From IMG/VR virus record IMGVR_UViG_3300037400_003286: a stretch of DNA of 64,000 nucleotides; one strand, written 5' to 3'. This document shows positions 1 to 41,451 of the stretch, in pieces. A program made the translations under genes and the position numbers. Position 1 is the stretch's first letter. Every line of letters begins with the position of its first letter. Origin of the DNA: a virus. Taxonomy: Duplodnaviria > Caudoviricetes. The notes beneath the pieces were generated by a model. It worked only from the letters and a program-made list of their open reading frames with translations, ran no database searches and was not told where the DNA came from.

Positions 1-54
1 TTCAAGTTCAAGTTCATGCGCACATCTTGTGCAAATAGCACCTTCTGTAATCAT
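1..54 (-). CDS. Partial hypothetical protein (MITEGAICTRCAHELELE..., runs off window edge)
   Basis: ATG overlaps the TAA of the upstream polymerase gene (TAATG coupling); CxxC motif. Confidence 0.5.
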   Translation of the reverse strand, partial: MITEGAICTRCAHELELE

Positions 55-1562
55 TACTGTAAATTGTTTTTAAGTTTCTTTTCTCTTTCTTTTAATATAT
101 CGATCAGATGATATTTCTCTTTTTGAGCTTTAACCATCATCTTTTTATATTCCTTACGTTTAGCGAAGTAATCACTAAGTATCTTAGGAATGAAACCTTC
201 AAATTCGTTAGTGTAAACACATCCGTTTGTACACTTGATTTCATTCTCCTTCGGTATATGGTTCTTATCCTTGAAAAGTAACGTATCTGGTGATATGTTG
301 AACTGTCTCATTGTTGTAGGATAAAGAGAAGCATAGTCCAAGCAATATACGTTTCTGTATATTCCAGGAATAGGTGAAAACACGAAAGCACCTTCATATT
401 CCTTCTTTTCCTTATCTTTCTTTACAACAGGGAATACTCTGTTCTCTCTGTAAAGATATTCCGCCTGTACGATTTCGATACTCTTTGTAGAACTGTATGT
501 TGATAGCACTGGAACATTCATAAGGGAAGCCAAACCGAACATAACAGAACTTGTCTTCAGTTTCTTATCGATCTCTCTAATAAGGACACTATCGATAGCA
601 TTATAGAAAACGTATTCCTTTTTCTGCTTTTCCCACATTTCCTTGAATCCAAGCTGGTGTACAACCTTTTTAACACCAAGAACCTTATCTGCAACCCAGT
701 CAAGTTTATTACTAACCTTAGGAGAAATAGATCGATCATGTTTCTTGTATAACTCCATATAGTCATACATACACTTATGCATCGGTAGCTTAATGTTGTC
801 GGCTGCAACATCCTGTGGCTTATATGTGAACCACGTCTTCGTTGGAGATAAACTTGTTATATCAAGACCTAACTTTGGAACACGGTTATAAAGATAAGGC
901 CAGTCATATCCGAACCAGTTCCATCCTGTTACACACTCAAGTTTATCTATAAAATTAAAGAAAAGATCATTCAGTAACGAAAATTCAGATGCATGATACC
1001 TGTACACAAACTTATAATCAGTATCAAATTGCTTACAATGCTTCTTTATTTCGTCTTGAATCCATTTAATTTCATCCTGTGATAGATTAGCCAGACCTAA
1101 CACGTAAACGGTATCCTCGACAACTATAGACACTGTATTGACAGGTCTCTTTGCGTCTTTAGCCTCTGGAAATCCTTCATCATCAACGTCAACCTCAATA
1201 TCCATGAATGCTGTTTTCGGAATATACATCTGACGCATTTCCTTCAACTGCTCATTTTCTGGGAACCATCTCTCAAGATCCATTATAATTTCATGGACAC
1301 GCTGCTCCGTAAATTTATCTGTAATAGGCTTTTTTACAACTGGCTTTCCGTCCCATGACTTATATAAAGTATCTGGTGTATCATCCTTTGTTGCGTATTT
1401 CCATTGATACATCAATTCATTTGGAATCATCCAAAAGAATGGTTTAACGGTTTGATTCTTATCAACATACGATATATACAGGAATTTCTGTGCTCTACCA
1501 TATTGATCAAGCACTGGTACACCATTCCTTGTATAATCGTGTATTTCCGTGTTAACTATCAT
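54..1562 (-). CDS. polB: Family B DNA polymerase, N-terminal subunit (3'-5' exonuclease plus palm motif A; gp43A-like)
   Basis: ExoI DIEV, ExoII GWNWFGYDWPYL, ExoIII YNAIDS and motif A DYASLYP; ends in the first fingers helix (KRKEYKKMM) without motifs B and C. Confidence 0.93.
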   Translation of the reverse strand: MIVNTEIHDYTRNGVPVLDQYGRAQKFLYISYVDKNQTVKPFFWMIPNELMYQWKYATKDDTPDTLYKSWDGKPVVKKPITDKFTEQRVHEIIMDLERWFPENEQLKEMRQMYIPKTAFMDIEVDVDDEGFPEAKDAKRPVNTVSIVVEDTVYVLGLANLSQDEIKWIQDEIKKHCKQFDTDYKFVYRYHASEFSLLNDLFFNFIDKLECVTGWNWFGYDWPYLYNRVPKLGLDITSLSPTKTWFTYKPQDVAADNIKLPMHKCMYDYMELYKKHDRSISPKVSNKLDWVADKVLGVKKVVHQLGFKEMWEKQKKEYVFYNAIDSVLIREIDKKLKTSSVMFGLASLMNVPVLSTYSSTKSIEIVQAEYLYRENRVFPVVKKDKEKKEYEGAFVFSPIPGIYRNVYCLDYASLYPTTMRQFNISPDTLLFKDKNHIPKENEIKCTNGCVYTNEFEGFIPKILSDYFAKRKEYKKMMVKAQKEKYHLIDILKEREKKLKNNLQ

Positions 1563-1667: not shown

Positions 1668-2768
1668 ATGGCAAAAGACAGCAGTGCTAAAATAAATGGA
1701 AGTACAAACGAAACGTCAGATGATTCTCTAAGATTATTCTCTGCGTATGATGCTGTATGCCATGCTGAGGAACAACTTGATAGCATAGAAACTGAGGTAG
1801 AAAACGCTATACCAAAGAAAATAGATCTTTGTACCATACAAGATGTATTAGCTATCCTTGATAAAGTCCAGGGTGCTATGATGGATGTTCAGAATGTAAT
1901 GACTTCTGCTGTCACAAATGTTCTTTCTGGTGCTATGCAGGATGCTACAAACCTCGCCAATGAAGGTGTAGATGCAGCTAAGAATGCTGCAACAGATGCT
2001 GTCAACAAGAAAAAGAAAAAAGCAGAGGATTCATCATCAGCACAGCTTGCTGTTGATGCAAAATACACAAAATATCTTGCAACACAAATAATACTTAAAA
2101 AATTCCAGATTATAAAATACAGAATAGAACTTATAAAAACTGGAATACAGATAACAGTAGCAAAACTCACAAAAGGAGTCCTGACTGGAATATTAGGAGG
2201 AAAAGGATCTGCTGGAGATCCAATCAACATGACTATGGCAACAACTATGGCAACTGCTGGTGCAACAGTAAGCACAATAATGTCAGTCATTGATGCTATC
2301 GTTACGGCTATAAACAGCATAACAATTATGAATGTAAACGGTGCTGGTATGGCATTTTTCCCAACACCAAAGAGTATTATGAAAGTAGATATAAACATAG
2401 CAAATTCGAAGCAATCTACAACAAATAATATTCCAGAAGCGATCGATCAAATGATCACAGAAGCCGAAAACAAAGTAAGGGAATCAAACGGGGCCATAAA
2501 AAAATCAAAAGTGCTTGCTATGGGTGCAGCTGGTGCTGCTTCTGCACCGTCTGGTAAATTTGATCCTGGTTCATTTGGTAGTCTTCCAAAATTCGATCCA
2601 TCAATAATAAGAACAGCCGTTATGATGCTTTTCCAGATGCTTATGGATGCAGATGCTGTACCAAGATATGAAAAGCTTTCTGTTGCAAACATAAGATTCC
2701 TTGTTTTCCTTGTTACTGGATTCGAGCCTGCTGGAAAAAATACATTCGGAATACCAGGATTTCCATAA
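1668..2768 (+). CDS. Hypothetical late (probably virion) protein, helical and Ala-rich
   Basis: 366-aa ORF after a late promoter and followed by a terminator. Confidence 0.7.
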   Translation: MAKDSSAKINGSTNETSDDSLRLFSAYDAVCHAEEQLDSIETEVENAIPKKIDLCTIQDVLAILDKVQGAMMDVQNVMTSAVTNVLSGAMQDATNLANEGVDAAKNAATDAVNKKKKKAEDSSSAQLAVDAKYTKYLATQIILKKFQIIKYRIELIKTGIQITVAKLTKGVLTGILGGKGSAGDPINMTMATTMATAGATVSTIMSVIDAIVTAINSITIMNVNGAGMAFFPTPKSIMKVDINIANSKQSTTNNIPEAIDQMITEAENKVRESNGAIKKSKVLAMGAAGAASAPSGKFDPGSFGSLPKFDPSIIRTAVMMLFQMLMDADAVPRYEKLSVANIRFLVFLVTGFEPAGKNTFGIPGFP

Positions 2769-2800
2769 AATAAAAGCTACCTTAATTGGTAGCTTTATTT
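2768..2800. terminator. Bidirectional intrinsic terminator
   Basis: AAAGCTACC-ttaatt-GGTAGCTTT with A/T tails between convergent genes. Confidence 0.75.
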
Positions 2801-3651
2801 ATAAGTGCATAGTATAAATTATATGTGTATGAATTTGTGTTGATCTTTTCATATGAAGAGTCATCCTTAAGCCATATAATCCTTCTTCCTATAACCTTGA
2901 ATCCGATAGGTTCAAGAGCTAATTGATACAAACTTAACTGTAACTGATATACATTGAAGCTGCAATTAAGAAGTTCATTAAAAGGATAAAGCATTCGTTC
3001 ACCTCTGAAGTTTTTATACAGATCCTTGTTGGTTTTATAATCGAAGATTACGAATCCGCTTTTATCTGATGTTTTATTATCTAATTCAGCATCATAATAA
3101 AACAGAAGATCAAACGTTCCAGAATATCCTAAATCTTCTCTGCAAACCTGATTCTCTGAAGCTATAGGAACAAAACATTGTGGTAAATCATTCCAGAATT
3201 TAACAACAGCATCTTCCTTTTCATTTATACTGTTGAATTCATCACCATTCAACCTGTCTTTGAAGTTCGGAAGGATCTTGTCATCCTGGTATGTCATAAA
3301 ATAGAAACAACTTTCACCGAATTCATGTACATTTGTTCCGTTATCACATGCAGTATACTTTATAACCGTCCATTGTTCAAGTATCTGTTGCTGTGTCATC
3401 TGATAGTATTTTGAAGTAGGATCGTTGTAATACTTCTCATACATCTCTTGAGATTTTGCAGCAGCATCAAATTTTGGTGTAAACAGATGTGTTACATTGC
3501 TTACACTCTCAAGTTGTTTTCCATTGTAATAATATCTATGACCTTCATTAACAAAAACGAGACCCTGATAGCTTCTCTTTATTAGGTCTCGCATTTGTTG
3601 GTATTTGTCAAGATTACTTATGTTTTTCCACTTTCCTCTTTTTAGTATCAT
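2782..3651 (-). CDS. PD-(D/E)XK exonuclease (Cas4/RecB-like phage nuclease)
   Basis: GTNVH, GTFDLL, IFDYKT and YQLQLSLY motifs. Confidence 0.8.
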   Translation of the reverse strand: MILKRGKWKNISNLDKYQQMRDLIKRSYQGLVFVNEGHRYYYNGKQLESVSNVTHLFTPKFDAAAKSQEMYEKYYNDPTSKYYQMTQQQILEQWTVIKYTACDNGTNVHEFGESCFYFMTYQDDKILPNFKDRLNGDEFNSINEKEDAVVKFWNDLPQCFVPIASENQVCREDLGYSGTFDLLFYYDAELDNKTSDKSGFVIFDYKTNKDLYKNFRGERMLYPFNELLNCSFNVYQLQLSLYQLALEPIGFKVIGRRIIWLKDDSSYEKINTNSYTYNLYYALINKATN

Positions 3652-3808
3652 TATTGTCAGTATTAAATTCCTTAACCTTTACGCAATATTGTTCTGGTGC
3701 TTTTATAAATCCCCCAGCAACCAATTCCACCTGTTTAGGATTCTTGTTCGGCTTCAGCTTCTTCTTGCAGAATATTTTCTTCAGCCAGCTTTTTATTCTC
3801 TTTATCAT
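3614..3808 (-). CDS. Small basic hypothetical protein
   Basis: 64-aa ORF filling the gap in the operon; overlaps both neighbours. Confidence 0.4.
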   Translation of the reverse strand: MIKRIKSWLKKIFCKKKLKPNKNPKQVELVAGGFIKAPEQYCVKVKEFNTDNNDTKKRKVEKHK

Positions 3809-4313
3809 TTATGAGATTGTTTATTTTTGGTATTATTCTTGGAACACATTCTATCAATTTTGTCTTTCTGAGAGAAGGAAAGAACACAACCTCATCAAAC
3901 AAAGAATAATAATCGTTCACTTTTGGTATATCGAAATCATCAAGAATAACATAACTCTCTATAACTGAATTAGTGATTACATTTATAGAATTCTTTATAG
4001 CAACAATGGTATCGCAATTCAAATTACTATTAATGTAAATCATACCGATATAACGCTTTGATTTTGCTCCAGAAACAATAAGCCTTTCAAGTTCCGTATT
4101 AATCAAATACTTATGTGTTGGCTTTTCTGGGTTCAATCCAGATTCTTTCAGTATATCATCAACATCTATTATATAAAATGAACTGAGATTGCTAAAAAGA
4201 TTCTTCAGCTTTCGTAGTGGTTCTATTGTTGCGTAAAATTTCATTCTTAAATTACCGTGAAGATTTTTGGGTTTCTCTACACGGTTATTTATTTTCATTT
4301 TTAAGAGAATCAA
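3735..4313 (-). CDS. Hypothetical protein (start may be the downstream MKFYATIE)
   Basis: ORF in a co-directional operon. Confidence 0.65.
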   Translation of the reverse strand: MILLKMKINNRVEKPKNLHGNLRMKFYATIEPLRKLKNLFSNLSSFYIIDVDDILKESGLNPEKPTHKYLINTELERLIVSGAKSKRYIGMIYINSNLNCDTIVAIKNSINVITNSVIESYVILDDFDIPKVNDYYSLFDEVVFFPSLRKTKLIECVPRIIPKINNLINDKENKKLAEENILQEEAEAEQES

Positions 4314-19534: not shown

Positions 19535-20010
19535 TAAAATAGTGCCTTTGTTTTTGGCTCTTTATTTTCTTTTGCTTCTTCTGGATAAGGAAATTCCTCG
19601 ATCCTTATATGATGTTTATAATTAAGAATATCTCTCAAGATGTGTCTGTGACAAAAATCAGACGGCTTTTCATAGCATAGAAAAACAATCGCCTGATATT
19701 TATCAGAAAATTCTTCATCCATTGTTTGATACCATTGATCTACATCCTTGTATTGATATGAACAGTTTTTAAAAAATTCATCAAACTGTTCTTCATATCT
19801 TCTTCTATATTCTGATGGATCTATATTTCCAGATTTAATATCGTTAAGCAATTCTTTTGTTGGCGCAAGAAAATTACCTCTTACAAAAAGAAAATTATCT
19901 GGTGCATTATCTTTTAACCACTCTGGACAATACTGAGAAATTCCCACCATCAAATAGTTGGCAGGAATATTCTTCATATTTGCATAATATGATGTATATA
20001 ACTTAATCAT
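19534..20010 (-). CDS. DUF488-like protein
   Basis: LYTSYYA, LAPTKELL and LCYEKPSDFCHRH motifs. Confidence 0.75.
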   Translation of the reverse strand: MIKLYTSYYANMKNIPANYLMVGISQYCPEWLKDNAPDNFLFVRGNFLAPTKELLNDIKSGNIDPSEYRRRYEEQFDEFFKNCSYQYKDVDQWYQTMDEEFSDKYQAIVFLCYEKPSDFCHRHILRDILNYKHHIRIEEFPYPEEAKENKEPKTKALF

Positions 20011-20185
20011 GTATGTCTATTAAAAATTCATCAAGTTTCCCATTCCAGAAACCCTGTTCTTCACAATAATTCTTGAACTCCTGTAATGCATCTTCTGCAC
20101 CAGCTTTATATACAACTCGATCGATCAATGTCGATTCATCATTTCCTGGAAACTTATTCTCAACTAATTCATTAATTGTTTTCAT
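20003..20185 (-). CDS. Small hypothetical protein
   Basis: 60-aa ORF, tightly packed in operon. Confidence 0.55.
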   Translation of the reverse strand: MKTINELVENKFPGNDESTLIDRVVYKAGAEDALQEFKNYCEEQGFWNGKLDEFLIDIHD

Positions 20186-20187
20186 AT

Positions 20188-21552
20188 TTAAAATAAACTT
20201 GGTGTATATGTAAGTGTCGGAGGAATTTCAAAATATCCCATAGCAACAACTATACGATTCAACGGACTTAATAACATCTTCTCAAACTGAATATCAATAT
20301 CGATTGCTGGCGCAAATTCAATTGGGAAAGAATCAGGAACAAAGCCGAACACTGTATCTTCACCAGTATAATAGAATCTTACCTTTTCTCCAGACTTTAA
20401 TAGTGAATACTTACTCTTGTATTTCTTTCCCTTGTTGAACAGCATATTGTTATAAACTGCTGCCGCCCTAACATGGATAGGAATAGGAAGCTTATCGTTT
20501 GTCAGATATTCATTACCGTTCTCATCAACCTTTGTCTTAAACTGGAAATATTCAATTTCTGGTGTCTTGTCGTTCTTGACAAAATTCTCATAGTTTGATA
20601 TTCCTTTTGTAATGGAAATATCATTAGGATTCTGCATTACGAAACGTTTCTTGATTTCCTTCAGCTTTGATACTATCTCACTAAGTGTTGGTTTTCTTCC
20701 AGTATTCAGAATACCCATTACATAATTGACGAAAGTCTTCATTTCCTCACGACAATAGTCTGTAGTCGTTCCCTTGACAACATCGAAACCAGTATATGTA
20801 ATATGTTCAAGAGGTTCAAATCTTGCACCAGAATCGATCCATTCAACATCACACATATAATTCTTCTTTGCAAGCATGATGATTGTACGGGAAATCTTCT
20901 CAAGTTCAAACTTCTCGAAGTTGTTCTTACAGTGATTTCTTTCAGCATAATTATCGAACTTGTCATCCATATATGATTCAAGAATCTCCTCATAGAAAGC
21001 AAGGTCAAATTCAAGCTGTTGATCCTCTGGAATATAACAAGCATCAATCAAAGGCTGAAGTGTAATATATGCAGAATTATGAACAAGTATGTCATTTGCA
21101 AAGAACGTATGGGTGTCATCACCCATTTCAATGTCATACACATATTCATTATCATACTCACCTGTACATAAGCATGATACGACTTTATCGGATCCTTCAA
21201 CAATATCACCATACATTACTTCCAATGATAATACATAATCATCTGGATGTATCTCGCAAGGTTTAACTTTATATAGTTTATTGTCTCTCAAAACCATCAT
21301 AGAATGATCATTGGTAACTGTAACAGAATGACCGAATCTCGTTGTTATAGTCCACTTTGGTTTTGATACCTTATGGCGAATTATACGCTTTACGTCACCA
21401 TAGTATAATTGAGAAATGTTTGTAAGGGTCGATCCTTTGAAATTCAATACCTTATCATCAGTATAAACAGATTCATGTCCAGCAAGTGTGGACTCTCCTT
21501 TATTAGATGAACGTATCTTTCTTATTGATACTATTTTTTCAAATTGACTCAT
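20188..21552 (-). CDS. polB: Split-intein C fragment fused to the PolB C-terminal extein (palm/thumb)
   Basis: TNDH block B, VYDIE...FFANDILVHN then SAY; followed by FELE, AKKNY, GFDVVK and PIHVRAA of gp43-like polymerases. Confidence 0.92.
   Translation of the reverse strand: MSQFEKIVSIRKIRSSNKGESTLAGHESVYTDDKVLNFKGSTLTNISQLYYGDVKRIIRHKVSKPKWTITTRFGHSVTVTNDHSMMVLRDNKLYKVKPCEIHPDDYVLSLEVMYGDIVEGSDKVVSCLCTGEYDNEYVYDIEMGDDTHTFFANDILVHNSAYITLQPLIDACYIPEDQQLEFDLAFYEEILESYMDDKFDNYAERNHCKNNFEKFELEKISRTIIMLAKKNYMCDVEWIDSGARFEPLEHITYTGFDVVKGTTTDYCREEMKTFVNYVMGILNTGRKPTLSEIVSKLKEIKKRFVMQNPNDISITKGISNYENFVKNDKTPEIEYFQFKTKVDENGNEYLTNDKLPIPIHVRAAAVYNNMLFNKGKKYKSKYSLLKSGEKVRFYYTGEDTVFGFVPDSFPIEFAPAIDIDIQFEKMLLSPLNRIVVAMGYFEIPPTLTYTPSLF
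21076..21552 (-). mobile_element. IntC of split intein 2 (159 aa; blocks B, F and G; Ser+1)
   Basis: RHKV, TxxH and terminal HN followed by S. Confidence 0.9.
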
Positions 21553-22723
21553 TATTTATATATTTTTTAATCTCAGATAAAATACTATTTCTAACCTTTC
21601 TCTTATTATGTTTATAGTCATCCTCCCAAACAGTTATAATTTTGACACCTATAGTGTCTTTTATATCATTTTCTCTCTGTTTTTCAGATTCCCATATATC
21701 TCCAACGATTCTACCGTTTTGTTCATATAACCCATCAAAAATATCAGTTTCTTTATATACTCCTGGTTTTGGATGAAATTTTATACCATTAAACTCTATA
21801 CATATATTTAAAGTCTTATCATAAAAATCTAAATAATATAAATGATTATTTTTTGTATAAACCTCATATTCATAATTATATTCAGCAAAATATATATCAT
21901 GATCTTTAAATATATCATCTGTTATCAAAGACTTAAACAATTCTTGAGAAATAATAGAATACGATTTGTTTATATATCTGGCATTATTGAAATTATTCCA
22001 TTTATTTAATCCTTCTTCTTCACCATATGTAGTTATAAAATATTCTCTTGTATTACTATAAGCCTCTTTCTCTCTATATTTGTTCCATTTTTCAAGACCT
22101 TCCTTCTCACCATATCTTTTTATAAAATTATCAAGAGTACACGATCTACTTTTATTATAATTATCAAATTCCTCTTCAGTCATTCCATATTTTTCATGCT
22201 TATATTCATATGTGTTTGTTATTCTCTGCTTTTCCAGATAAATATCCCATCTTTTTTGCCCTTCTTCTTCACCATATTTTTTAATAAATGATTCCAAAGA
22301 ACGTATACACAATTCATTATTTTTTTGATTTATTTCTTCCTCTGGAATATCAAATGCATATTGTGCATATATTGTTGGTCTATTAAAAACCCTAGATTTA
22401 TTTTTTATATCAATCCATTCTTTAAAATGTTTTGACATGCATTTTTCACAAACACATAATTTATAAACCTTTCCATTTATCTCTTTTGTTGATATTGGTG
22501 ATGTACCCATATAAACTTTTGGATAATCTTGATACGCTCCTCTAAACCCAACATTCTCATAATACAGTTCACCGCCACAATATTTACACATATTCCTATT
22601 TTCATATATAGGATTATCTTTTAACAAATCTGCAAATTTTTCATATGATTTATTATTATTAAAATCTTCACATCTTTGTTTATTATAATAATTAACTTTT
22701 TTCCCTGATAATACGTCTGGCAT
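21539..22723 (-). CDS. Free-standing homing endonuclease (Zn finger, YGEEEG repeats, Vsr/DUF559-like PD-(D/E)XK domain)
   Basis: CKYC...CVCEKC; KKYGEEEG-type repeats; YLDFY...CIEFNGIKFH...TVWEDD; AT-rich; lies between the split-intein halves. Confidence 0.8.
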   Translation of the reverse strand: MPDVLSGKKVNYYNKQRCEDFNNNKSYEKFADLLKDNPIYENRNMCKYCGGELYYENVGFRGAYQDYPKVYMGTSPISTKEINGKVYKLCVCEKCMSKHFKEWIDIKNKSRVFNRPTIYAQYAFDIPEEEINQKNNELCIRSLESFIKKYGEEEGQKRWDIYLEKQRITNTYEYKHEKYGMTEEEFDNYNKSRSCTLDNFIKRYGEKEGLEKWNKYREKEAYSNTREYFITTYGEEEGLNKWNNFNNARYINKSYSIISQELFKSLITDDIFKDHDIYFAEYNYEYEVYTKNNHLYYLDFYDKTLNICIEFNGIKFHPKPGVYKETDIFDGLYEQNGRIVGDIWESEKQRENDIKDTIGVKIITVWEDDYKHNKRKVRNSILSEIKKYINNESI

Positions 22724-22794
22724 AATAAATTATAAATAGTTTTATTTATTATATTTATTTACAATTTTATGGTGGCTCCTGCATATTTTTGTAA

Positions 22795-23910
22795 TTAAGT
22801 AAAAATTTCATCGTTATATAATATATCATCAGGATATACATAGATGATTTTATCCGATCTTTTTACTTTAACTTTATCGTTCTTATTATATCGTATAATT
22901 TTTCCAGATTCTGTTTTTATTTCAAAAACATCTTTTTCAGAATTTTCTTCATAAAAATCTTCTATAGTAATACCATCAACATGTTTCTTTGTACGAATAA
23001 TAGTATCTTTTGAAACAGAGTCTGTATTATGAACAAGAATACCGTTTGCAAAGAAATTATGATAATTATCTGTATCAGAATCCACTTCAATATCGTAAAC
23101 ATACGCAACATTTCTATTTGATACACACTCTACAGAAAATCCAGAAACACAAATAAGATCATTTTCACCTTTCAAAAATAAAAATGTATCTTTATCTATA
23201 TCATCAGGTTTAACTTCCTTAAAATTAGTATCATAATATTTTAATAAAGAATGATCTTCTGTACAAACAACATAAGTATCATCATTAAACACTTTATATA
23301 ATCTTTTGTTTACTTTGTGTCGCATAACATACTTTATTGGCTTCTTGTCAATCTTTCCAGTAATTAAATCGACACAATATATGCTTCTGTTAGATTTTAC
23401 ACGTTCTTTACCAAACTGATCGATCTCTATATCTGTTCCTTCATTGAAAAGATCTGCAATCATCATAAAAGAATCATCCGAAAGTGTTATCAAACTATCA
23501 CCAACAACGGAATCACCATATACCTGAACGGTGTCTAATTTGATCGTATTATTTTTAGCACACTCAAGGAATTGATCATATTTGAATGCATCACCGAATA
23601 TGTTTCTCAATCTATCAGCGATACGTTTATGACCCTCATAGTCCTGGTTCCAATGATTGTTTATATAATCATTGATTTCAATAACCGAAAACTTAATCAG
23701 ATCCTGTCCCTGAAGAGTAATAGACTCTGCAATGTCTGAATCAGCAAGGTTAAAGAATGCCGTACCGAACACACCATATACACTATTAATAAACGTCTTT
23801 GCGGACAACTGCATAGTGTTATAGTATTCCTCTTCGTTCTCAAGATGATCGATCCTCGATTTAAGCTCTTCAATCGAACAAGTTTCTGGATTAAAATTCT
23901 GTTCTTCCAT
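22795..23910 (-). CDS. polB: PolB middle piece (fingers motif B to YGD), cis mini-intein 1, TD, and IntN of split intein 2
   Basis: QLSAKTFINSVYG, ESITLQGQ, YGD|SVVGDS...VHN|TD|SVSKDT. Confidence 0.92.
   Translation of the reverse strand: MEEQNFNPETCSIEELKSRIDHLENEEEYYNTMQLSAKTFINSVYGVFGTAFFNLADSDIAESITLQGQDLIKFSVIEINDYINNHWNQDYEGHKRIADRLRNIFGDAFKYDQFLECAKNNTIKLDTVQVYGDSVVGDSLITLSDDSFMMIADLFNEGTDIEIDQFGKERVKSNRSIYCVDLITGKIDKKPIKYVMRHKVNKRLYKVFNDDTYVVCTEDHSLLKYYDTNFKEVKPDDIDKDTFLFLKGENDLICVSGFSVECVSNRNVAYVYDIEVDSDTDNYHNFFANGILVHNTDSVSKDTIIRTKKHVDGITIEDFYEENSEKDVFEIKTESGKIIRYNKNDKVKVKRSDKIIYVYPDDILYNDEIFT
22798..23019 (-). mobile_element. IntN of split intein 2 (74 aa, Ser1)
   Basis: Block A SVSKDTIIRT directly after the extein TD; no TxxH. 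Confidence 0.85.
23026..23511 (-). mobile_element. Mini-intein 1 (162 aa, Ser1/Thr+1, no endonuclease)
   Basis: SVVGDSLI, RHKV, TEDH, VYDIEV and FFANGILVHN followed by T. Confidence 0.92.
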
Positions 23911-23935
23911 TTTATATGTTTATATTATACCTCTT

Positions 23936-23952
23936 TTGCAAATATACAACTT
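23936..23952 (-). promoter_or_regulatory. Early Bacteroidota-type promoter
   Basis: 17-mer copy upstream of the second polymerase locus. Confidence 0.85.
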
Positions 23953-23992
23953 TTTATTTAACAATGAAAAAGTTTTGGCGAAAAACCAAAAC

Positions 23993-24940
23993 TTAATCAA
24001 ATTTACTTTTTTGTTTCATCACTCCATCGTAGATTCCGTTTTTCTTCATTTCGTCTACTATCATCTGTGATAGTTCTGCGATCTGAGGATGAGGCTTTCC
24101 AGTCTTTCCGAACAATCTCAAGTCAAGGAAAAATCTCCAATCTGATTCATATCCAGTTATACATAACTCTGTTTTCAGGCAAAGAGGAAATACAGCCCTT
24201 GCTTGCTGTGGAGTAAGCGGATTATCCTTGAAACCAGTCTTGAAACGAGCATCTGGTTTTCTTTCATCCCATTTACCACGCAATGCGAAATATACATCCT
24301 CTGTATCTTTCATCAATTGCATGAATGCTTCCTGCTGCTGTAATGTTGCATTTGGGAACCAGTCTGGCATAATATACGCAATATCTGTTCCGTATTTCTC
24401 ATTTGAATAATCAACAAATCTTGTACTCTCCTGAGCAAACGAAAAAGCACGATGTCTTACAGCCTCGTTTGCAATAGCCCTGTCTGTAATCAATCTAAAC
24501 GTATAACGCTTCTCGTGCATATCTGTCGGTTCACACCAGAATTTCAAGTCATCAAGTCTGTTGTTCTCTACAAGCACACGAAGATTTGTAGTCACATATA
24601 CACAATCTTTATCATACTTACATTTTGAATACTTGTTTGTCGAATAAAAATCAAGTTCACACTCATACTCAACCAATTCAATATTGTTCTCGTATTCAAA
24701 ATTCCTATAACACTTGAGATAAACAGCACAGCTTTCAAGCATAGCTGTATGATGAGATTTGATCATTCTTTCCACAAAAGCTTTGGCTCCTTCAAATGTT
24801 CCATCACACTTAGCCTCGCTTTTATAACATGTCCTGGCTGTCTTTTCAATTAATTTATAAACACCCTCAACCCCAGGATCCTGTTTAAGATATTCAGCTT
24901 TCTGTTCTAATAAAATCATAAAACTAACTTTATTTTTCAA
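23993..24940 (-). CDS. thyX: FAD-dependent thymidylate synthase
   Basis: ARTCYKS, RHRAFSFAQESTR ThyX motif, ARAVFP and HPQI. Confidence 0.92.
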   Translation of the reverse strand: MKNKVSFMILLEQKAEYLKQDPGVEGVYKLIEKTARTCYKSEAKCDGTFEGAKAFVERMIKSHHTAMLESCAVYLKCYRNFEYENNIELVEYECELDFYSTNKYSKCKYDKDCVYVTTNLRVLVENNRLDDLKFWCEPTDMHEKRYTFRLITDRAIANEAVRHRAFSFAQESTRFVDYSNEKYGTDIAYIMPDWFPNATLQQQEAFMQLMKDTEDVYFALRGKWDERKPDARFKTGFKDNPLTPQQARAVFPLCLKTELCITGYESDWRFFLDLRLFGKTGKPHPQIAELSQMIVDEMKKNGIYDGVMKQKSKFD

Positions 24941-39666: not shown

Positions 39667-41451
39667 TTAATTATTTGGTACTATAGATGTTGGTGGTATC
39701 ACCTGTATTCTTCGTATGAAATCATCAGAGAACATTTTATATGAATTCTGCATCAAATAAGAATAGCATCCATCGAATATAAATGTTACACACCAATCGT
39801 GTTCGTTTCTTATTCCTCTACCTACTCCCTGTAGAATCGATATTGCTGTTGTATTGCTATACCATTCTGGGTTTATATTTTTCTTAGCTTTTACGAATTT
39901 GTCAGCCAGGCTAGGGTATGGAACCTTCATTATAATCTGGAACCTACAAAGATCATCATCGAATGACAAACCTTCTATAAGACTTGGGCCGACAAGAACC
40001 TTATCGTTACAATATTTGAAATATTCTATAGCCTCTGTCTTACCCTTTGTATCATCATATAATATCAACCTCTGTCTTACAGCAGGACCTACATAATCAA
40101 TCAGTTGCTTTGCGAACTGATAGCTTCCAGTTTGTATTATACCTCTCTTACCAGCGTACATATTTATCGTTGCTTCTATCAACTCTGCAACTTTAGGAAG
40201 GTTCTGTTCCTTCTCCTTATATGATAGTCTGTAATCTGGAATATAGAATATAGGCGAATTTGTAAAATCGAATGTCGAAGGTATATCTATAGAATGATAA
40301 TTACTGAACGAACATTCTTTTGCAAACGCATCAGCTTCACCTATTGTGGCAGACATATACATCTTGTTTTTACAATGAGCATGAAAATGCTTATTCATAA
40401 GATAAGACTCATTGATACAGTTAAATGTTATATTGTCTGGTGTAGAATCATCATAATTCTTTACAAGATTCTGTATTCCTACACTTTTTATAATCTCAAC
40501 ATAATCAGAGAATGAACTTATATGATTTTCAAGAAATTCACAATTGTATACGAGGTTTTTATCTTCTTTTGATAATGGTTCATTCTGATCCGTTTTCAAA
40601 GAAATATCTCTTTTGATTGTATCTATACCATCGTTCAACACTTTCATCTTTGAATTATATTCTTCAAGATAATCAAGTATAGAAGCATTGTCAGATGTTG
40701 CTACAATTTTCCTTCTGATAAGTTCAATTTCATCAACTATAGTGTCATTATCAAGACCAGACTCAACGATATTCTTCATTTTTCCTATATCGTCTGGTTT
40801 CATTGCTGGAGAAAAATGATTCTGAACTATACCGACAAGCTTGTGTGCCTCATCACATATAGTAAAATCTCTTTCATTAAAAGGTGCTTGCTCTCTTAAA
40901 AGAGCCTTTACAAGATTTTGCTGAATTAACCAGAACGAATATGTACAAACAAGAAGATCAGCACGCATGGCTTTTTCTCTTTCCTGAATATATGGGCATT
41001 CACATGCACATTCAGGAAACTTCTTCATTATATCACCATACGACTTACATCCTTTTAGCTTACATGCACCAGAACTGAAATTAAAGCCATTAACAAGGCA
41101 CTGGTAATTTTGCTGTCCTTTAATAACACTCCAATTCGGGAAATATTTTTCAACATCTCTCGAATACTGATCAATAAGGTTTAGATCCGATGCCAATATA
41201 TAACCAGTCATATCATAGAATCTGGTTAATACTCCAGCTATGGTTAAAGCTGTGATACTCTTACCAGATCCAGTAGGAGCAGAAATAATAACATTATCTG
41301 TTCCGTTCAACCAATTATCAACAGTTGTGGCTACGGCTTCTTTCTGATTTGGTCTGAATCTGAATGTCGGACCGAAAGACTCCATAGCAACAATATCAAT
41401 CTGCTCATTGATCTTATCTATTCCTGGTGATTTAATATTATTCTTATCCAT
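39667..41451 (-). CDS. DinG/XPD-family SF2 DNA helicase
   Basis: APTGSGKS, DEAH, SAT, KVPYP and QGVGRGIR motifs; Cys cluster; start moved to 41451 because the longer ORF start overlaps the promoter. Confidence 0.88.
   Translation of the reverse strand: MDKNNIKSPGIDKINEQIDIVAMESFGPTFRFRPNQKEAVATTVDNWLNGTDNVIISAPTGSGKSITALTIAGVLTRFYDMTGYILASDLNLIDQYSRDVEKYFPNWSVIKGQQNYQCLVNGFNFSSGACKLKGCKSYGDIMKKFPECACECPYIQEREKAMRADLLVCTYSFWLIQQNLVKALLREQAPFNERDFTICDEAHKLVGIVQNHFSPAMKPDDIGKMKNIVESGLDNDTIVDEIELIRRKIVATSDNASILDYLEEYNSKMKVLNDGIDTIKRDISLKTDQNEPLSKEDKNLVYNCEFLENHISSFSDYVEIIKSVGIQNLVKNYDDSTPDNITFNCINESYLMNKHFHAHCKNKMYMSATIGEADAFAKECSFSNYHSIDIPSTFDFTNSPIFYIPDYRLSYKEKEQNLPKVAELIEATINMYAGKRGIIQTGSYQFAKQLIDYVGPAVRQRLILYDDTKGKTEAIEYFKYCNDKVLVGPSLIEGLSFDDDLCRFQIIMKVPYPSLADKFVKAKKNINPEWYSNTTAISILQGVGRGIRNEHDWCVTFIFDGCYSYLMQNSYKMFSDDFIRRIQVIPPTSIVPNN

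Follow-up and report, generated by a model that had tools for sequence, protein, structure and literature searches.

An endonuclease gene with intein-like flanks inside a second intein of a phage family B DNA polymerase

How natural split inteins originate is an open question, above all for the rare, atypically split ones that are prized for protein labelling. We followed up a locus that puts this question in a concrete form, in a stretch of 64,000 nucleotides (nt) of phage DNA (Duplodnaviria; Caudoviricetes; IMG/VR record IMGVR_UViG_3300037400_003286; hereafter the window). An intein in motif C of a family B DNA polymerase, the second of two there (intein 2), is broken close to its N terminus, and a free-standing endonuclease gene lies in the break between two short intein-like segments. 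The reading that we prefer as a whole, by a little more than an even judgement, is that a cassette derived from a canonical fractured intein broke a resident intein, whose halves splice in trans and are docked by the flanks of the cassette, which itself spreads by homing. The locus is a new variation on both fractured genes and atypically split inteins.

Three open reading frames (ORFs) make up the locus, and all polymerase, intein and endonuclease genes of the window are on the minus strand (Table 1). ORF A runs from an extein ending in YGD through intein 1 and the dipeptide TD to a 74-amino-acid (aa) N-terminal fragment (IntN) of intein 2 and a stop codon; ORF B encodes the endonuclease; ORF C, which shares the reading frame of ORF A, opens with a 159-aa C-terminal fragment (IntC) holding block B (TNDH), blocks F and G and the terminal HN. 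Intein 2 therefore has the sequence features of a class 1 HINT intein, namely Ser1 in ORF A and TNDH, terminal HN and Ser+1 in ORF C, and is predicted to splice. Its resident part in ORF C matches Pfam Intein_splicing (PF14890) with 44.8 bits against a cut-off of 35.8. As in a fractured gene, a free-standing endonuclease gene separates two neighbouring genes that encode the halves of a split intein. The break is not at the canonical site behind block B; it lies after helix 1, with block B in ORF C, which agrees with the initial annotation, made from the sequence of the window, that intein 2 is split before block B. A native IntN part of 27 aa and an IntC holding blocks B, F and G would make this an S2-type split intein, but the IntN frame adds 47 intein-derived residues, which we call the tail; the 15 residues that open ORF C are called the head.

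The extent of the insert was fixed by a codon-level DNA comparison with the contiguous allele L042 (related sequences are cited by L and P handles), which bore out the coordinates first proposed, 21508-22938. The insert is 1431 nt long and in frame, its edges lie between the codon of Ser27 and the following Ser codon, and it comprises the tail, a stop, the 394-aa endonuclease gene, a start and the head. The parts of intein 2 had been predicted to join collinearly, and contiguous alleles (P0006-P0012, P0021/22 and L042) read across as predicted, with ...NS-(K/S)NKGE... at the join. Residues 16-159 of ORF C, the resident part, are 97% identical to the contiguous alleles P0006 and P0008, the C-extein is 100% identical to that of the unsplit allele P0012, and the native 27 aa are 83-90% identical to the contiguous P0013 and P0021/22 and to P0125. 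Neither tail nor nuclease nor head was found in the contiguous alleles of the same lineage that were compared (P0006-P0012, P0013, P0021/22, L042), so the unit put forward earlier as mobile, from dead IntN tail through stop, endonuclease and start to IntC head, is missing from near-identical unsplit alleles. Against P0125, identity is 87% in the N-extein, 90% in TD plus the native 27 aa and 30% in the tail; in the comparison with P0017/18, the head has 33-40% identity, the resident intein about 80% and the C-extein 93%. The GC content of the insert is 0.245, compared with 0.343 in the resident intein part (binomial p 6e-16). On these sequence comparisons, we are highly confident that the insert is a discrete cassette.

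Residues 1-165 of ORF C, used as the query of a protein search, recovered the locus in several states, all from the same phage lineage. Motif C is unbroken and free of inteins in L044/45; L046 and L011 have intein 1 only; P0006-P0012, L042/43 and L010 have a contiguous intein 2 only; and both inteins are contiguous in P0013, P0026 and L041. L049-L051 have intein 1 and, canonically split around a homologous nuclease, intein 2. The window's own layout recurs in L040 (partial), in an N gene (P0125) and in C genes (P0017, P0018, P0035 and P0083). The locus and its relatives thus form a series within one gene, namely intein-less, contiguous, canonically fractured, nested fractured, and with a fused insert after nuclease loss, and this makes the pathway testable. 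Two homologous Ser1 inteins here lie two residues apart within motif C, and all four combinations of presence and absence occur among L044, L046, L042 and L041; for intein 1, L046 has it and L042 lacks it. Intein identities among the relatives are decoupled from extein identities, a mosaic pattern.

The flanks of the endonuclease gene point to the source of the cassette. MAFFT, unprompted, placed the window tail on block B of related inteins and on the strands that come after it. Scored against an intein profile built from 13 contiguous inteins, the tail reached 16.7 bits at positions 71-114 (the maximum over 300 shuffles was 7.5), and nine of nine tails from different loci map to profile positions 71/76-113. 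Canonical IntN fragments of many phages end in ~45 residues to which the whole tail can be aligned without a gap (z 7-11). Of these, the IntN end of L050 comes closest, with 16 of 44 residues identical, including a run of six (z 11); the likeness to the block B region of the resident intein itself is weaker (z 4.1). With Asn and Asp in place of the catalytic Thr and His, the tail is catalytically dead. These results uphold the description of the tail as a HINT-derived IntN end without TxxH. The head had been likened to the first strand of a canonical IntC. It aligns to positions 4-15 of canonical IntC fragments, with 5 of 11 residues identical to L049/L050 and 5 of 10 to Tenacibaculum phage PTm1. 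Derivation of the cassette from a canonical fractured intein is, judging by these alignments, probable.

The endonuclease fits such a source. ORF B is a member of phrog_22677 (E 7e-42); searched alone as a single sequence, it matched nothing in Pfam or the PDB. A profile of the 23-member endonuclease family gave a weak Vsr match (E 0.2 over 80 residues), PF18741 matches 10 of the 23 members and DUF559 two, the invariant residues of the alignment are retained in the window endonuclease, and the PTm1 homologue is annotated as a VSR endonuclease. "Vsr-like" is thus a reasonable but tentative label, based on sequence, for the C-terminal nuclease domain. Homologues of ORF B sit between split-intein halves in many phages, and the same family has canonical-site homes in PTm1, Lak megaphages, L016, L028-L039, L049-51 and others. 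In a maximum-likelihood tree of 30 nucleases, the window nuclease is sister to the canonical-site nucleases of the related phages L049/L051 (support 100/100), the nucleases of the S1 group form a clade of their own adjoining the canonical L067/68, and L004 stands elsewhere. The nested label needs at least three changes on this tree, which implies either repeated moves from the canonical to an N-terminal site or exchange of nucleases via homologous flanks.

The arrangement recurs beyond the window. S1 and S2 are the two known natural atypical split positions (PMC13014065). Nested loci of the S1 type (L014/15/57/61, L072 and L073) have the insert after strand 2 and before helix 1; 13 native residues are followed by a 43-44-aa tail, and a conserved basic head precedes helix 1. 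L004, from a Nitratidesulfovibrio/Desulfovibrio-type phage, has the nested layout with a longer tail in which the block B His is retained. We took the best 120 related protein clusters, 111 of which were classifiable; in 39 of these the C-fragment ORFs start with a nested-type head (34 S1 and 5 S2), and the head motif is conserved across all 39. Clusters with the layout of the window include ones with 17, 33 and 44 member sequences. These numbers bear on the view that the insertion inactivated intein 2, leaving a dead polymerase gene in a phage that uses another polymerase. The gene is indeed in three pieces, and we found no point that supports this view; the layout is found in 39 clusters overall, the catalytic intein residues (Ser1, TNDH, terminal HN and Ser+1) are all intact, there are no frameshifts, and the C-extein is unchanged from the unsplit allele. 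We consider a dead gene very unlikely.

Some relatives have no nuclease gene at all. L059, L060, L062 and P0132 are one-piece, nuclease-free polymerases in which tail and head are fused in frame at S1. Since L060 has split counterparts that are nearly identical to it (P0114 and P0126), the one-piece forms look like products of nuclease loss, and the nuclease therefore seems to come and go at the tail/head junction, as in a homing cycle. The in-frame insert was kept after nuclease loss in at least four lineages. No fused, nuclease-less allele of the S2 type was present among the longer proteins searched. By the initial annotation, contiguous homologues of intein 2 should be free of the extra segments, which is true of the near ones and not of these four distant ones, where a homologous insert is present. 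The sequence of P0132 is a polymerase fragment of 679 aa, and its intein appears to start with Thr rather than Ser.

The fused forms also bear on an intron, that is, on the idea that the 1431 nt are a self-splicing group I (or other) intron with a homing endonuclease, tail and head being read-through into it. In its favour, the frame of ORF A continues in ORF C, the insert length is divisible by three, and Vsr-like endonucleases are also known from group I introns (PMC2677866, PMC3239194). Yet the nuclease-less relatives translate tail and head within one long polymerase ORF, the tail is a protein homologue of intein block B under purifying selection, and ORF C has its own ATG in a 14-nt overlap with the 3' end of ORF B, including its stop. 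A group I or II intron was rejected on a cmscan of 20000-24200 in which no Rfam intron family appeared at E up to 10, a search that a very divergent core could escape. We regard an intron as scarcely credible.

For the predicted structure, we used the natural single chain L060 (S1-type) as a proxy, modelled by AlphaFold with a 39-row alignment. Its intein has a mean predicted local distance difference test score (pLDDT) of 92.4 and a predicted template modelling score of 0.89, with pLDDT 95-98 in the inserted region. The body of the model matches the Aes123 PolB1 intein (9hth) with Z 24.3 over 165 residues at 33% identity, and the ~60 residues left over form an extra ordered beta subdomain. 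Compared with 48,161 PDB representatives, a model of the insert on its own had inteins as eight of its top nine matches, aligned at block B and the strands behind it, for example on residues 53-99 of Npu DnaE IntN. A full HINT fold with an extra half-HINT, as the initial annotation expected of the two fragments together, is thus seen by proxy in a single-chain model, with a weak match for the extra subdomain.

The main competitor to a docking role of tail and head, less probable than our preferred reading and still a serious one, is that both segments are inert passengers, dragged along as flanking intein sequence when the endonuclease gene left the canonical site, or left behind by unequal recombination of a contiguous with a canonical fractured allele. 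The 27-aa IntN would then assemble alone, and tail and head would persist only since reading frames must end and begin somewhere. Selection speaks against this: the dN/dS of the tail is 0.22, 0.24, 0.37 and 0.44 in four locus pairs, not about 1. Tails are full-length and cover the same region of the hidden Markov model in polymerases that are only 22-30% identical. The insert stays in frame where the nuclease has been lost, and its fold is confidently predicted in the context of the L060 intein. The charge of the segments was also compared: heads have a net charge of +3 to +5, and the majority of tails are acidic, with -1 to -8.

Several observations weigh against the reading that we prefer, and some of them favour passengers directly. 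Natural and engineered atypical inteins splice with an IntN of 15-27 aa and no tail (PMC10189870, PMC11766414), so a tail is not strictly needed, and the 37-aa IntN of GOS-TerL can be trimmed to 27 (PMC11766414, PMC10189870). L004, with its longer tail and block B His, resembles an earlier stage. The tail diverges faster than its flanks: between L014 and L015, it has 92% nt identity (2612-2743), compared with 100% in the adjoining block A, head and N-extein, a local divergence that suggests exchange of cassette variants. The tail dN/dS values are drawn from 39-44 codons. The window tail has a net charge of 0, which leaves charge complementarity weak in the window. The likeness of the head to the first IntC strand is consistent in position and statistically weak (z 2.6-4.2), and heads had no significant match to the intein profile. 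The structural proxy is a single chain of the S1 type, whereas the window has a pair of the S2 type; folded alone, the insert drops to pLDDT 77 with the head unstructured, and its PDB matches reach Z 4.3 at most. The tail does have the AT-richness that had been noted as nuclease-like (GC 0.22, p 0.001), but the native 27 IntN codons match the cassette in AT-richness (GC 0.247) and intein 1 is AT-rich too (0.284), so composition alone leaves the left boundary unfixed. The left boundary of the incoming DNA may accordingly lie further upstream, which would fit an origin by recombination.

Taking both sides together, we place a putative docking, or "clasp", function of tail and head at about an even balance, and it is the explanation that fits best at present. 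The course of events that we favour starts from a contiguous Ser1 mini-intein resident in motif C of polymerase B, which would have been broken after its first helix, at the S2 site, by a 1431-nt cassette from the middle of a canonical fractured intein. This cassette would have carried the last ~47 IntN residues (the block B hairpin and post-B strands, with Thr and His lost), the gene of a free-standing Vsr-like homing endonuclease and the first IntC strand. The outcome would be two genes, one with the native 27-aa IntN and the dead tail, the other with the head and all else that the intein needs (N2 strands, live block B, F and G). The 27-aa part would complete the HINT fold of the long fragment, as in inteins of the AceL/GOS-TerL type, and trans-splicing would join the polymerase pieces. 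Tail and head would form an extra beta subdomain that docks the fragments, corresponding to the segments that capture first in canonical split inteins. The endonuclease would cut cassette-less alleles and thereby spread the cassette as a whole; in relatives, it may also spread by re-invading fused tail-head inserts. The origin may have been in two steps, unequal recombination with a canonical fractured allele and then decay of the redundant part, a route on which L004 looks, by its sequence, like an intermediate; alternatively, the stretch from the end of block B through the nuclease to the first IntC strand may have been cut and pasted.

The closest known systems place this proposal. Fractured genes, together with one atypically fractured terminase intein, were described by Dassa et al. 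2009 (PMC2677866). Fractured genes, here PTm1, Lak megaphages and L049, share with the window the order IntN, stop, endonuclease, start, IntC, the endonuclease family and the insertion site in polymerase motif C. In them, the nuclease is at the canonical post-block-B site and each intein element is present once, whereas in the window a second and complete intein has the nuclease, canonical flanks included, at its S2 site, so that block B with the post-B strands and the first IntC strand are present twice, one copy being dead. A hairpin has been reported before the nuclease gene of fractured genes, and the 71-nt spacer here folds into no significant one (z -0.15). The atypically split inteins AceL-TerL and GOS-TerL (S2) and VidaL and PolB16 OarG (S1) are, like intein 2, split near the N terminus and have a long IntC with block B (PMC11766414, PMC10189870, PMC13014065). 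PolB16 OarG, described as the only known natural, atypically split, cysteine-less intein, has a 15-aa IntN and splices slowly (PMC10189870, PMC13014065); it also shares the polymerase B gene and Ser1/Ser+1, and the native N-extein of its construct, SGDTD (PMC10189870), matches the DTD-Ser junction of the window. The IntN fragments of these inteins have 15-37 aa, and we found no appended intein-derived tail reported for them, whereas the window has 47 additional residues, predicted to be structured, behind the 27-aa native part and a conserved, basic head in front of the IntC. The cysteine-less Aes123 PolB1 intein (9hth), the closest solved structure to the HINT body, likewise belongs to a polymerase B gene and uses Ser chemistry, but it is canonically split and has no duplicated elements.

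For tails that come with an endonuclease, the parallel is NrdA of phage Aeh1, interrupted by mobE, whose fragments need insertion-derived tails to assemble the active enzyme (Crona et al. 2011, PMC3045599). There, as in the window, endonuclease-borne sequence extends the two fragments of an essential enzyme, one at its C terminus and the other at its N terminus, and the extra tails of ORFs A and C likewise lie beside an endonuclease gene and are missing from unsplit alleles. The Aeh1 tails are unique sequences in an intein-less enzyme, serve holoenzyme assembly of the large subunit rather than pairing of the fragments, and the fragments stay unjoined; in the window, the tails can still be recognised as parts of an intein, now dead, and they sit in a host that is an intein too and is predicted to splice afterwards. 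A full-text literature search found no description of an intein in which a nuclease gene is enclosed by a dead duplicate of the intein's own middle; this is not proof of absence.

If the dead flanks do raise the affinity of the fragments, they would explain how an essential polymerase tolerates a break at an unfavourable site. Short IntN fragments are said to bind weakly for want of native capture elements (PMC13014065), a known practical limit, and the locus would then be a natural template for better short-fragment, cysteine-less split inteins; it would also be a second, independent case, after Aeh1 NrdA, of a homing endonuclease that brings its own repair kit for the protein that it breaks. 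In a broader proposal, which we offer tentatively and hold with less confidence than the docking function itself, the unit of dead IntN end, endonuclease and first IntC strand is a portable split site that moves from the canonical position to S1 or S2 of a naive intein. It would bring native capture elements with it, so that the newly broken intein still assembles tightly, and would be the natural way in which atypical splits come about; tail-less forms such as PolB16 would be later decay products, and protein engineers could take the unit over as it stands for cysteine-less split inteins with a short IntN and high affinity. The suggestion that the cassette is a general splitter of other genes found no support. 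The S1-type module, searched by phmmer against 1.84 billion representatives, gave eight matches, seven in polymerase B contexts and one in an unrelated repeat protein. No other host gene was thus found, only polymerase B inteins at one site, with a sensitivity limited because the S1-type query was too diverged and missed the window-type tail.

The source phage is a large gut myovirus, with genes for tail sheath, baseplate, portal, a UvsX-like recombinase and NAD ligase in the window. Its family B polymerase is split over three genes, the exonuclease part lying ~22 kb from the middle and C-terminal pieces at a break that is free of inteins; this N-terminal gene (Table 1) has 34% identity over 465 aa to the N-terminal 560 aa of the L060 polymerase (tblastn, E 2e-62).

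Table 1. Coordinates of the polymerase, intein and endonuclease features in the window
Feature	Coordinates	Strand	Description
ORF A	22795-23910	minus	371 aa, central part of a family B DNA polymerase (matches Pfam DNA_pol_B and PHROG DNA polymerase)
N-extein	23512..23910	minus	ORF A aa 1-133, ends in YGD of motif C; the intein-less L044/L045 read YGDTDS unbroken
Intein 1	23026..23511	minus	Contiguous 162-aa Ser1 mini-intein, Thr+1; Pfam Intein_splicing 37.2 bits
Extein dipeptide TD between the inteins	23020..23025	minus	
Intein 2, native N-part	22939..23019	minus	27 aa: block A (Ser1), strands 1-2, helix 1
Tail	22798..22938	minus	47 aa, stop at 22795-22797; block B and post-B copy of canonical IntN, catalytically dead
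Spacer	22724..22794	minus	71 nt, AT-rich (GC 0.17), precedes endonuclease gene
ORF B	21539-22723	minus	394 aa, free-standing endonuclease
ORF C	20188-21552	minus	454 aa, 159-aa IntC, then Ser+1 and polymerase C-terminus
Head	21508..21552	minus	ORF C start codon and 14 more codons; basic, net +3
Resident intein 2 remainder	21076..21507	minus	144 aa: N2 strands, live block B TNDH, blocks F/G, terminal HN; GC 0.343, extein-like
C-extein	20188..21075	minus	Polymerase C-terminal part beginning with Ser+1
Polymerase N-terminal (exonuclease) gene	54..1562	minus	Separate gene, same polymerase

Elsewhere in the window, a helicase ORF contains a weak intein-1-like tblastn match (40780-40926, minus strand; 29% across 55 aa, with E 0.006 from a very small database), which is probably due to chance. 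Among the canonically fractured relatives, at L050 3357-4433 and L051 2918-3994, the nuclease ORF is only 239 aa long, yet tblastn similarity spans residues 12-370; the gene appears to be broken, a decaying stage of the homing cycle. L002 (Klebsiella phage KP13-7) has, at 2703-4026, a nuclease homologue annotated as hypothetical and then an IntC-like segment, which is 58% identical to residues 122-159 of the window IntC; this jumbo phage probably has a fractured gene that escaped annotation. In Lak megaphages, which read TAG as Gln, an extra ORF of 80-100 aa lies between the nuclease and IntC genes (L001, 4747-4989; L006, 3577-3882). A second, weaker nuclease-like match (29%, residues 225-369) is present downstream of the polymerase C-terminal gene in L016 (5861-6346) and L017 (5559-6044).

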